Assembly: GCF_057098645.1 (NCBI RefSeq)
Contig: NZ_CM169472.1
Length of the DNA stretch: 64,000 nucleotides
Reading direction: 5' to 3' (one strand)
Shown: positions 59,791 to 62,403 of the stretch, piece after piece
How positions within the stretch are numbered: the first letter of the stretch is position 1
Layout of the letters: each line of letters opens with the position of its first letter
Translations under genes and position numbers: made by a program
The notes under the pieces: generated by a model
Told to the model about the DNA's origin: nothing
Databases searched by the model: none
What the model saw: the letters and a program-made list of their open reading frames with translations, nothing else

Positions 59791-59870
59791 GATCACGGAT
59801 TGGCATCGAAGTCCGATCAGCGATTCGCATCCATTCGATCAACCGGGAACTTAACTTTTTCTACCGCTTT

Positions 59871-60626
59871 TTAACGCGTTTTTTCGCTGCTTTCCACTAC
59901 CGGGGGATTTTTCCTCAGTGACTCTCCCTGAAGGACCACTCGGTGTGAGTTATGTACCAGTCTGTCCAGGATGGCATCTGCTGTTGTTGGGTTCTCCATC
60001 AGACCATGCCATTTATCTACCGGGAACTGGCTTACCACTATCGTGCTGCTTTGTCCGTAACGATCCTCTATGAGCTCCAGAAGGTCATTACACTGGGCGT
60101 TACTTAACTGTTCCAGCCCCAGATCGTCCAGGATTAGAACCTGTATTTTTTGCAACTGTTTCAGATATTTCAGCCAGCTGCCATCAACACGTCCCTGAGC
60201 CAGTTGTTCCAGTAATCGCCCGGTTCTACAGTACCGGACGCTGTGTTTCTGTCGACATGCCTGTTCGCCCAGCGCATTGGCTATCCAGCTCTTGCCACAT
60301 CCTGTCGGACCGGTTATCAGCAGGTTTTTCCTGTGGGTTATGTAGTGGCCGTTCAGCAGTTCTCTCATCTGTTCAGCCCGCAGACCTCTTGAGGCCGGAT
60401 AGCGCAGCCCTTCCGGTGTTGCCTGGTATTTCAGGCCGGCATTTTTTCTCAACCGTGCCACACGGCTGTTTTCCCTGCTCAGAAGCTCGTCATCAACCAG
60501 CAGCGTCAGCCTTTCCTCGAACGACAGTTCGTCGTAGGTCTGAGGCGTTTCCCGCTGCCGTATCAGGCTCCCGGCCATCGCCGGGAGTTTCAGTTGGGTC
60601 AGTTTGTTTAACAGGTTATCACTCAT
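59871..60626 (-). CDS. istB: IS21-family helper ATPase IstB
   Basis: Track ORF 59871..60869; start set at MSDNLLNKLTQLKLP… (252 aa); Walker A GPTGCGKS, Walker B LILDDLG. Confidence 0.9.
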   Translation of the reverse strand: MSDNLLNKLTQLKLPAMAGSLIRQRETPQTYDELSFEERLTLLVDDELLSRENSRVARLRKNAGLKYQATPEGLRYPASRGLRAEQMRELLNGHYITHRKNLLITGPTGCGKSWIANALGEQACRQKHSVRYCRTGRLLEQLAQGRVDGSWLKYLKQLQKIQVLILDDLGLEQLSNAQCNDLLELIEDRYGQSSTIVVSQFPVDKWHGLMENPTTADAILDRLVHNSHRVVLQGESLRKNPPVVESSEKTR

Positions 60627-60642
60627 ACTGTTGTTCCTTCTG

Positions 60643-62178
60643 TCAGTGGTAGTAGCCCGGACCACGCAGGTTTTCATGCTCTGAAGCATATGCCGGATGT
60701 TGTTCGCCCTGGCGGGATAATGGAAGCTCCAGGTTCTCCCGATGGTGACGCAGCAGATTGTCGATAAAGCGTCTGTCAGGGGCGTTATAGTGCAGGGCAA
60801 CGTAACAGGCCTTTTCCAGCCGTTCCGGGCCGTATTTTTTCTGAAGTGCCAGCAGCCCCAGAACTGCACGATAAGCCAGTTCCGGATGGGGTTTTGCCTT
60901 CAGCATGGATTCAACCACCCGGCCTGTGGACGGGCCCGTACGTTTTCCCTGCTCGATCAGGCGTTCCGGTGTCCATGTCCCGTGCTGCCGGTGGCGCTCT
61001 GGCATGTGAAGCGGATTGGTTGTGTGTTTATATTCATGTGTGCTGCGCGGATGTTGCGCCACACACTGCCCCTTGTGCCAGAGCTGTACCACCGACTGCC
61101 CCGCCTTCAGTGACAGACGCTGACCGACCAGTTCGTGTGGAACGGAGTACCAGTGACGGGCATATTCAACGTGGTAGTCAGGGCCAACCTTCACAGCTTT
61201 GTATTCCGTGTATTCATAAGGTGCCAGAGGCAGCGGAGAGAGTGCTGGCGCATCCAGTATGCGGAAGCGTTCTGCACGGGTTTGATTGCCGTACCCCTTC
61301 ATTGGCCGGTTATTCATGTCTGTCAGTAACTCCCTAAGGCGCGCATTCAGCGCCCTGAGCGTGTGGAAGGTTTCATTACGGATGCGGGCAAGAAGCCATC
61401 GTTCAACGATGAGGACGCCGTTTTCTGCTTTTGGTTTATCTTTAGGTTTGCGTGGTCGGGCCGGGATGATAACCGTGCCATAGTGCTCAGCCAGTGCCTG
61501 ATAACTGTCGTTGATGACAGGCTCATATCGATCGGCCTTTTTCACTGCGCTTCTGAGGTTATCGGGGATGAGCAGCTTCGGTACGCCGCCCAGGAAGGTC
61601 AGGCAACGGCTGTGGGCATTTAACCATGACATCATGTCCTGACCTTCGCACGCTTCAACGTAGGTATAGTTGGACGCCCCCATTACGGCCACGAAGATTG
61701 CCACGCGGCGTATCTCACCGGTGTCCGGATTAATAACAGGAACCGTAGGACCACAGAAGTCGATAAAAAGCTTTTCGCCGGCACGATGCTCCTGGCGCAT
61801 GGAGAGACGTCGCGTTTTTTTCCACTCCCGGTAGCAACGGCAGAAGTGCGAGTATCCCATCGCTTTGTTACCCGCCTGTGCCTTGTATTCCATCCACAAC
61901 AGTTGCCGCGTCACACCTGGTTTTCTCATTTCCGTATCGAAGTACAACATGTCAGGCATTACAAGCTCTGATGCAAAGGTGTCTTTGGGCGGAAAAATGA
62001 GTTTCTCCAGCGTGTCATGGGATATATCAGCAGGTAATGGCCATGACAGAGAAGAGGCTTTGAAGCGGGCAAGAACCTCAAAAACGGTTGAGGCGCTGAT
62101 GTGTAACGTCAGTCCGATACAACGGTTAGTCAGCTTCTTGTCGAACTTGAGCTGAAGGATCTTAAAACAGGTTTCCAT
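60643..62178 (-). CDS. istA: IS21-family transposase IstA (HTH + DDE domain); start codon uncertain
   Basis: Track ORF 60643..62289; start provisionally at METCFKILQLKF…; DDE-transposase-like middle region; 16-bp gap to istB. Confidence 0.85.
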   Translation of the reverse strand: METCFKILQLKFDKKLTNRCIGLTLHISASTVFEVLARFKASSLSWPLPADISHDTLEKLIFPPKDTFASELVMPDMLYFDTEMRKPGVTRQLLWMEYKAQAGNKAMGYSHFCRCYREWKKTRRLSMRQEHRAGEKLFIDFCGPTVPVINPDTGEIRRVAIFVAVMGASNYTYVEACEGQDMMSWLNAHSRCLTFLGGVPKLLIPDNLRSAVKKADRYEPVINDSYQALAEHYGTVIIPARPRKPKDKPKAENGVLIVERWLLARIRNETFHTLRALNARLRELLTDMNNRPMKGYGNQTRAERFRILDAPALSPLPLAPYEYTEYKAVKVGPDYHVEYARHWYSVPHELVGQRLSLKAGQSVVQLWHKGQCVAQHPRSTHEYKHTTNPLHMPERHRQHGTWTPERLIEQGKRTGPSTGRVVESMLKAKPHPELAYRAVLGLLALQKKYGPERLEKACYVALHYNAPDRRFIDNLLRHHRENLELPLSRQGEQHPAYASEHENLRGPGYYH

Positions 62179-62403
62179 AGTGCTCCTGGATTTTCTCTTT
62201 CTGGACATTGACGTCTCCACTGGTTTAAACACGGCAATGGAGACTGTGGTGAAAAGAGTTAATTCCCGGAGTGACTGGCAGGATGCCAATCAATGATCGG
62301 AAGCATGCCAAATCGTGATCGATTGTGATGCCAAACTGTGATCGGAGATGGATGCCAAATCATGATCGATTCGAATGCCAAACTGCGATCGATTCAGATG
62401 CCA

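Follow-up and report, generated by a model that had tools for sequence, protein, structure and literature searches.

The question raised by this locus is whether the sid gene of a P4-like satellite has been broken by an insertion sequence (IS) and, if so, what would follow for the satellite and for the anti-phage genes that it carries. The locus lies in a window of 64,000 nucleotides, the whole stretch of DNA that was analysed, and all coordinates below are positions in that window.

The satellite in question is P4-like and sits at selC in an E. coli chromosome. The features that define it outside sid were located as follows:

55156..55252, plus strand: tRNA-Sec gene (selC) with the attL core (ARAGORN; Rfam tRNA-Sec)
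55413..56591, plus strand: satellite integrase, a tyrosine recombinase of 392 aa (Pfam Arm-DNA-bind_3, Phage_int_M, Phage_integrase)
56647..57513, plus strand: cargo gene 1, HAD-family hydrolase (PADLOC 'Hydrolase'; PDLC03008, E = 6e-198; Pfam HAD_2, Hydrolase)
57515..58147, plus strand: cargo gene 2, transmembrane partner (PADLOC 'Hydrolase-TM'; PDLC03009, E = 9e-141)
58235..58316, unstranded: cos packaging site (93.9% identity over 82 bp to the joined P4 ends)
58421..58993, minus strand: psu, 190 aa, frame intact (Pfam Psu, E = 1e-88; 189 of 190 residues shared with P4 Psu)
59067..59567, minus strand: δ, Ogr/Delta transactivator of 166 aa, frame intact (Pfam Ogr_Delta)
63111..63215, unstranded: GGTGAACAG/TGTTCACC iterons between sid and alpA, matching the type-1 repeats of the P4 ori (annotation of NC_001609) in a region that aligns to P4
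63494..63760, plus strand: alpA/vis, ORF88 homologue of 88 aa (Pfam Phage_AlpA; 87 of 88 residues shared with P4 ORF88)

A stretch of 23 bp, made up of the final 21 nt of tRNA-Sec and 2 further nt, recurs at attR in relatives; in E. coli MS 16-3 the two copies of this direct repeat are 10,490 bp apart. The core set of P4-like satellites comprises int, psu, δ, sid, alpA, ε and α (PMC8628076), the first five of which were found co-localised in P4 order by Pfam and P4 alignment, with sid present but interrupted. The window ends at position 64000, just past RNA motifs of the immunity region, and ε, α, crr and attR fall beyond it, as would any helper prophage; the relatives MS 16-3 and WWCOL-236 have these genes. 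The ATG of δ overlaps the stop codon of sid (ATGA), and the δ protein is identical to that of P4 at 162/166 residues and to that of MS 16-3 at 165/166. The first-pass annotation of this DNA had described int, the cargo pair, psu and δ as apparently intact, and all five proved to be complete, with 99-100% identity to the corresponding proteins of the IS-free MS 16-3 satellite (392/392 residues for the integrase, 288/288 and 210/210 for cargo genes 1 and 2).

The cargo pair lies between int and cos/psu, in the int-psu hotspot, and its matches to PDLC03008 and PDLC03009 span the full profile length. A system composed of a HAD hydrolase and a transmembrane protein inhibits T7 (Rousset et al. 2022, PMC9122126). 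The pair in the window is assigned to this anti-phage system (PADLOC 'Hydrolase-TM'), and by analogy anti-T7 activity would be expected of it.

The interrupting element was delimited as follows:

59772..62410, minus strand: complete IS21-family insertion sequence of 2,639 bp (PGAP name "ISSso4 family"; ends 5'-TG...CA-3')
60643..62178, minus strand: istA, IS21-family DDE transposase of 511 aa, intact (NCBIfam transpos_IS21; Pfam rve, Mu-transpos_C_2)
59871..60626, minus strand: istB, AAA+ helper ATPase of 251 aa, intact (Pfam IstB_IS21; NCBIfam IS21_help_AAA)
59772..59841, unstranded: terminal inverted repeat next to istB, within which lie two subterminal repeats at 59790-59807 and 59814-59831 (repeat search; end-to-end alignment)
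62282..62410, unstranded: istA-proximal end, where the terminal inverted repeat comes after five tandem GATGCCAAAnnnTGATCG repeats (62282-62391)

An IS had previously been placed at 59791-62403; the element is real, but these limits are too narrow by 19 and 7 bp, because the outermost subterminal repeats were taken as the stopping point. The ends TGCGTATT...TTTTGCA and the length of 2,639 bp recur in eight other E. coli copies at unrelated sites, which with the copy in the window makes nine independent insertions with identical ends and identical length. The istA product scored 284.7 bits against NCBIfam transpos_IS21 (cut-off 160) and exceeded the curated cut-offs of Pfam rve and Mu-transpos_C_2; its gene model in PGAP has equal length in the other copies. 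The istB product matched Pfam IstB_IS21 with E = 1e-60 and NCBIfam IS21_help_AAA with 257.8 bits (cut-off 200).

The istA-istB pair, the terminal inverted repeats and the gatgccaaa-type subterminal repeats reported in the first-pass annotation are all present. Seven GATGCCAAAnnnTGATCG subterminal repeats were counted in the IS, two at its low-coordinate and five at its high-coordinate end; in the whole window nine matches were found as against 2.6 expected, a number reached in none of 100 shuffles. The terminal inverted repeats are imperfect and about 65 bp long, the termini agreeing at 54 of 64 aligned positions with an alignment score of 48 (shuffle mean 10, shuffle maximum 27). The name "ISSso4 family" is taken from the PGAP annotation. 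Target duplications in the IS21 family measure a few base pairs, with 5 bp for IS5376. The element thus carries istA together with istB, TG...CA ends, several repeats at each end that are predicted to bind IstA, and a short target duplication, and it is classed in the IS21 family on this combination. The published hallmarks of the family are multi-repeat inverted ends, a terminal CA and a 5-bp duplication, together with the lack of a strong target specificity; each end consists of two or more transposase-binding units (L1/L2, R1/R2) (PMC10122671).

The insertion point and the two parts of sid were then defined by these features:

59767..59771, unstranded: target-site duplication CCTGC, low-coordinate copy (comparison with the MS 16-3 empty site)
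62411..62415, unstranded: target-site duplication CCTGC, high-coordinate copy (comparison with the MS 16-3 empty site)
62394..62942, minus strand: sid 5' fragment, Sid residues 1-178 followed by QNGI and a stop codon from IS sequence
59564..59771, minus strand: sid 3' fragment, Sid residues 176/179-244 and stop codon, including the gpN-binding helix α6

In MS 16-3, where the site is empty, the sequence is ...TTTCACCTGCTGCATGACAG..., with CCTGC present once only. Both junctions share a 9-bp identity (ACCTGCTGC), and a duplication of 5, 6 or 7 bp would be possible in principle; at the eight other E. coli copies the target duplications measure 5-7 bp. The alternative boundaries, with a 6- or 7-bp duplication, were ruled out by the TG...CA ends of these eight copies, and since the comparison fixes the ends in this way, the duplication in the window is 5 bp. 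The exact junction and the duplication, which the first-pass annotation had left to be placed by alignment, accordingly lie at sid codons 176-178, with CCTGC as the duplicated sequence. The flanks of the nine insertion sites are partly alike (TTTCACCTGC, TTTCCTGGC, TTTGACCTGAC), nine sites being too few for a target preference.

The C-terminal sid frame ends with a stop codon at 59564-59566 and the N-terminal frame starts at 62942, just as had been described, and the two join into one Sid of 244 aa. When the IS and one copy of the duplication were removed in silico, the 244-aa frame was restored, and the reconstructed protein aligned with P4 Sid (X51522) over residues 1-244 at 98.8% identity (E = 5e-159). 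P4 aligns to the window on either side of the IS, and the P4 coordinates meet at 10107-10119. The flanking frames are contiguous parts of one Sid; a failure of the two to align in this manner, which would have spoken against an interrupted gene, was not observed.

The IS in the window and the copy in E. coli strain 3R (NZ_CP049348.1) differ at none of 2,639 positions, and the sid halves carry no lesion other than the IS. These two observations show the insertion to be recent. Comparison with IS-free relatives, as proposed earlier, bore out the interruption: sid is uninterrupted in MS 16-3, and among 980 E. coli genomes with the same sid, 972 have the empty site as a contiguous stretch. A 300-bp junction query returned no record at ≥80% coverage among 5,426 complete E. 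coli genomes, an exact scan of the GTDB representative genomes with the 30-mer GATGATTTCACCTGCTGCGTATTCCGCTCT as junction probe gave no match, and searches for exact copies of the three proteins of 182, 188 and 92 aa, which are chimeric or truncated, turned up no record. As the exact junction was found in no other genome searched, the population data offer no evidence on the fate of the insertion. The IS itself is multicopy: as many as 34 places in a single E. coli genome match it.

It is very probable that an active copy of a known E. coli IS21-family element recently transposed into sid of the selC P4-like satellite, with the consequences proposed below. The event is an ordinary one and already known in kind: a common, catalogued IS21-family element has disrupted a gene.

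A selected domestication, in which the insertion was favoured rather than neutral, either because the satellite can then no longer exploit or interfere with a resident helper prophage or because the element becomes fixed in its site, with the hydrolase/TM cargo kept by the host, is unlikely. The intact, 100% conserved int and cargo would suit it, the cargo being of a validated defence-system type, as would the independent presence of the same IS in two other selC satellites (in an ori iteron in WWCOL-236 and in psu in ETEC1717/1718). By a rough estimate, about 1,060 IS copies and satellites amounting to about 0.04% of the DNA of the collection lead to about 0.5 chance hits expected, as against two independent events (three genomes) seen; this excess is statistically unconvincing, the IS copies are not independent, and an enrichment of the IS in satellites was not retained. 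The occurrence of the insertion in no other genome searched leaves no sign of spread or fixation, and the identity of the IS with other copies and the undecayed sid halves fit a very recent, possibly transient event. IS21-family elements, moreover, lack a strong target specificity (PMC10122671).

Marginally less credible again is the broader proposal that IS hits in the helper-exploitation and replication modules of selC satellites are a recurrent, selected route by which E. coli or a resident helper prophage would make a fixed defence island of a parasitic satellite, combined with helper-triggered transposition. The latter is suggested by the position of istA directly downstream of the helper-activated sid promoter, since a helper phage that activates the satellite may thereby switch on transposition of the IS.

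The break at codons 176-178 parts the body of Sid from its C-terminal helix α6. In the solved structure a linker loop (residues 200-219) precedes α6, which makes most of the contacts with the helper capsid protein gpN, and tethers it to the body, so that gpN binding and cage formation reside in one chain (PMC7552001). In the window no single Sid polypeptide joins the dimer- and trimer-forming body to α6: the frame from the sid ATG stops after residue 178 and QNGI, and α6 (beyond residue 219) sits on the far side of the IS from the sid start. The earlier proposal that sid is inactivated and capsid size redirection lost is thus well supported, as an inference from the split of Sid before α6.

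That function is retained, either because Sid(1-178) and a C-terminal fragment started at TTG 59842 complement each other or because truncated Sid suffices, is highly improbable. An ORF of 92 aa (59564-59842) does start in the IS terminus and run in frame into Sid 176-244, and the long stem helices for Sid-Sid contacts are still present in the N-terminal fragment (PMC7552001). This ORF, however, stems from a mechanical ORF list, has a TTG start and lies on a strand where no promoter-like site was found; the tethering of α6 to the body, with gpN binding and cage formation in one chain (PMC7552001), also speaks against complementation, and no precedent was found. An assembly artefact, in which a repeat-induced misjoin put an IS copy inside sid, would draw on the multicopy state of the IS (up to 34 matching places per genome), but has almost no probability left, as both junctions are exact, the flanks rejoin to an in-frame 244-aa sid, and a clean 5-bp target-site duplication would not arise from misassembly.

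Under the preferred reading, a recent transposition into sid, the sole product from the sid start would be Sid(1-178) with four foreign residues, devoid of α5, the linker loop and α6. Such a truncated protein would lack most contacts with helper gpN, and therefore the satellite would be unable to assemble the external cage by which capsids are forced to the small T=4 size.

Since sid, δ and psu form one operon (PMC8628076; PMC9942202), effects on the downstream genes were considered as well. Late expression of δ and psu, which lie downstream in the operon behind the 2.6 kb IS and two untranslated gaps, would probably be reduced; it may suffer because 2.6 kb now separates both genes from the presumed sid-operon promoter. 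A scan of 58300-63500 predicted no intrinsic terminator on the coding (minus) strand inside the IS, for which reason polarity on δ and psu is not assertable from the sequence; transcription that starts at the sid promoter or comes from istAB could still read through and express both genes. Across the whole scanned interval the coding (minus) strand showed no promoter-like site either, and the idea that δ and psu are driven by a hybrid promoter facing outward from the IS end was dropped on this ground.

With a helper present, the satellite would be limited to packaging in helper-sized heads, in multimeric form and with low efficiency, and would no longer suppress the yield of the helper. Its size would be about 13.1 kb if the part beyond the window resembles the MS 16-3 satellite; no quantitative upper packaging limit of the T=4 capsid was found to set against this figure. 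The suggestion that the element may be losing mobility is supported in part only, since sid mutants of P4 continue to enter P2-sized heads, inefficiently and as multimers (PMC6893505). The insertion leaves integration, excision, cos and the anti-phage cargo untouched, and the element would therefore go on serving its host as a defence island.

The significance of the locus is limited, since none of the mechanisms, gene families or elements seen in it is new. It is a clean and datable IS knockout of the capsid-shrinking gene of a P4-type satellite whose anti-phage cargo is intact, and it adds one data point on the decay of satellites into immobile defence islands. With the IS-free near-twin in MS 16-3, this natural sid-null allele could be used to gauge the worth of size redirection to a wild satellite.

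Among known systems, the E. coli IS21 copies of the 'ISSso4' group, such as that in strain 3R (NZ_CP049348.1), share the sequence, istA/istB, TG...CA ends and subterminal repeats of the IS in the window, which differs from the strain 3R copy by its insertion site only. The selC P4-like satellite of MS 16-3 (NZ_CP146667.1) occupies the same site and has 100% identical int, cargo and alpA proteins, with Psu and δ each one residue off; at the DNA level it is 98.45% identical to the window in the shared part left of the IS and only 95.6% right of sid, and it differs in having an uninterrupted sid, no IS and 10,490 bp between its att repeats. With P4 itself (X51522 / NC_001609) the cos-psu-δ-sid DNA is 98.2% and the sid-ori-vis-immunity DNA 95.3% identical. 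P4 differs in its Int, which has 440 aa and uses another attachment site, whereas the integrase in the window has 392 aa and targets selC; in its gop-β-cII region, in place of which the satellite in the window carries the hydrolase/TM pair; and in its sid, which is whole in P4 and IS-split here. P4 sid mutants (e.g. sid1) are a functional parallel, having lost Sid as in the window, with large capsids only, multimeric low-efficiency packaging and a higher helper yield as the expected outcome (PMC6893505). Unlike those mutations, the lesion in the window is a 2.6-kb insertion, which makes the genome about 25% larger and may be polar on δ and psu.

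The sid gene of a P4-like satellite integrated at selC is interrupted by an IS21-family element. The features of the satellite and of the insertion are as follows:

55156-55250, tRNA-Sec (selC)
55413-56591, tyrosine integrase
56647-58147, two-gene cargo
58235-58316, cos, followed by psu, δ and the split sid in that order
59564-59771, sid 3' fragment, Sid residues 176/179-244
59871-60626, minus strand, istB, 251 aa (NCBIfam IS21_help_AAA, Pfam IstB_IS21)
60643-62178, minus strand, istA, 511 aa (NCBIfam transpos_IS21, Pfam rve, Pfam Mu-transpos_C_2)
62394-62942, sid 5' fragment, encoding Sid(1-178)+QNGI+stop from the sid start
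63111-63215, P4 ori iterons, clusters of GGTGAACAG/TGTTCACC repeats that correspond to those labelled 'ori type 1 repeats' in P4 (NC_001609 9310-9413)
63494-63760, alpA/vis
63819-63909, immunity region just downstream of alpA/vis, with isrK and c4-a1b1 RNA motifs (Rfam, 69.2 bits and 50.4 bits)

The limits of the element were set by comparing eight copies from unrelated genes, which are located in sbp, ardA, aldolase, DUF3560, dynamin-family and integrase genes and in two other satellites. All eight are 2,639 bp long, start with TGCGTATTCCGC, end with GCCATTTTGCA and differ in the flanks beyond, which places the element at 59772-62410. The first-pass annotation had recognised the element but given it as 59791-62403, stopping at the outermost internal repeats. 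Within the interval, istA and then istB are consecutive minus-strand genes, whose products score 284.7 bits against NCBIfam transpos_IS21 (cut-off 160) and 257.8 bits against NCBIfam IS21_help_AAA (cut-off 200; Pfam IstB_IS21, E = 1e-60), respectively. Near-identical copies numbered in the hundreds when 5,426 complete E. coli genomes were searched by megablast (query 59500-62700); PGAP labels them "IS21 family transposase" and "IS21-like element ISSso4 family helper ATPase IstB". Its sequence is that of E. coli copies already annotated, with no mismatch to the copy of E. coli strain 3R (NZ_CP049348) and 1-8 to other intact copies.

The low-coordinate end carries two copies of an 18-nt unit, GATGCCAAAnnnTGATCG, in inverted orientation (at 59790 and 59814), and the high-coordinate end carries a tandem array of five (62282-62391); at up to three mismatches, the whole window holds nine matches versus 2.6 expected, a number reached in none of 100 shuffles. 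When the first 70 nt of the two termini are compared as inverted repeats, they match at 54 of 64 positions (score 48; shuffled sequences averaged 10 and did not exceed 27). The left-hand flank ends ...GATTTCACCTGC, the right-hand flank starts CCTGCTGCATGACAG, and the uninterrupted site of an IS-free relative (L002) reads ...GATTTCACCTGCTGCATGACAG...; once the ends are placed as in the other copies, the duplicated target is CCTGC (5 bp), and the duplications around those copies are 5-7 bp. The flanks outside the istB-proximal end are alike at several independent sites (TTTCACCTGC, TTTCCTGGC and TTTGACCTGAC in window 59740-59771 and in L004 and L005, two loci with other insertion sites), so that megablast matches overran the element by as many as 19 nt; this likeness may reflect a weak target preference (9 sites examined).

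With the element and one CCTGC removed in silico, the sequence reads from 62942 as an uninterrupted frame of exactly 244 codons, whose product is 98.8% identical to that of P4 sid (X51522) over residues 1-244 (tblastn, E = 5e-159). At the DNA level, window 58257-59774 aligns with P4 11624-10107 (98.2% identity) and 62406-63970 with P4 10119-8554 (95.3%), the P4 coordinates meeting at the insertion point. The disrupted gene is therefore P4 sid; the two flanking frames are contiguous parts of one Sid, as the first-pass annotation had proposed, and the outcome that it had named as refuting this reading is excluded.

Of the IS-free relatives in the collection, the selC satellite of E. coli MS 16-3 (NZ_CP146667.1; 10,490 bp between 23-bp att repeats) is the closest. 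It shares Int, the cargo proteins and AlpA with the window at 100% identity, with a single-residue difference in Psu and another in δ. The cargo pair matches PADLOC "Hydrolase" (E = 6e-198) and "Hydrolase-TM" (E = 9e-141) over the full model lengths. It corresponds to the HAD-like hydrolase and transmembrane protein that are located in the P4 int-psu hotspot and inhibit T7 (Rousset et al., PMC9122126), so describing the satellite as defence-carrying appears justified. The P4-type RNA immunity region at 63819-63909 means that the window stops just as the left operon begins; ε, α, crr and attR lie beyond its edge. Should the half beyond the window be like that of MS 16-3, the satellite would now measure about 13.1 kb, versus 11.6 kb for P4. 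Positions 1-55000 look like ordinary E. coli chromosome up to selC, including yicI (51153-53471) and yicJ (53481-54920); neither helper-phage genes nor a second cluster of the IS repeat motif were seen there.

Of the 980 complete E. coli genomes with this sid, 972 contain the reconstructed empty site (857 bp) in one piece at ≥80% coverage. A 300-bp left-junction query reached ≥80% coverage in none of the 5,426 E. coli genomes, the junction 30-mer was absent from GTDB representative genomes, and exact-protein look-up returned no record of the chimeric junction proteins; the allele is thus rare or private. The insertion is also recent, since the element is identical to a known copy, the duplication is intact and sid carries no secondary lesions.

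Sid is elongated and helical in the P4 procapsid structure (PMC7552001). The cut at residue 178 takes away helix α5, the linker loop and helix α6, where most contacts with the helper capsid protein gpN are made, so redirection of capsid size should be lost. P4 transfer is possible without sid, since sid mutants still enter P2-sized heads as multimers, though at low efficiency (PMC6893505); the proposed loss of mobility is accordingly better restated as probably less efficient transfer and lost interference with the helper. As sid, δ and psu belong to a single operon (PMC8628076; PMC9942202), polarity on δ and psu is plausible, because both are now preceded by the 2.6 kb element and by two regions without translation (62394 to 62178 and 59871 to 59567). 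The sid stop codon overlaps the δ start codon. A consensus scan of 58300-63500 found no intrinsic terminator inside the element on the coding (minus) strand and no promoter-like site on that strand. Because istA follows immediately after the sid 5' fragment and is read in the same direction, helper-activated transcription starting at the sid promoter could run on into the transposase genes. A TGT-N12-ACA motif (TGTGTCAGGGCTGGCACA) lies at 63015-63032 on the minus strand, some 80 nt before the ATG of sid, and resembles the dyad to which Ogr/δ-type activators bind in the late promoters of P2/P4; if it is such a site, the promoter of sid is undamaged, and transcription from it now passes through sid(1-178) into istA.

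Two other selC satellites were independently entered by the same element. In E. coli WWCOL-236 (NZ_CP178552.1, 10048-12691; window equivalent about 63191-63197), the 2,639 bp copy lies inside a TGTTCACC ori type-1 iteron between sid and alpA, with the duplication ACTGTTC and sid intact, an independent strike on the replication origin and late-promoter region. In ETEC1717/1718 (ETEC1717, NZ_CP122876.1, about 10680-13200), it cuts psu short at the 3' end (duplication TCTGTG); the P4-like selC satellite of ETEC1717 has an AAA ATPase cargo and an int with an internal stop, and the otherwise similar satellites of ETEC1730 and ETEC1703 lack the insertion. With about 1,060 copies and satellites of this sid type making up ~0.04% of the collection DNA, a rough estimate predicts about 0.5 such events by chance versus two independent ones observed, a hint, not evidence, of a preference for satellites.

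The initial observation was thus correctly read; its general interest is low, and a modest use lies in a natural sid-null allele paired with an IS-free near-twin. The traits described for the IS21 family (PMC10122671), namely inverted ends with two or more repeats, a CA terminus and a short duplication of the target, are all present, and each of the four defining features tested was found, making the element a member of that family. The satellite that it entered is typical of the P4-like kind, the defence cargo belongs to a class already described, and the locus stays within known kinds throughout, the sole new fact being this insertion site.
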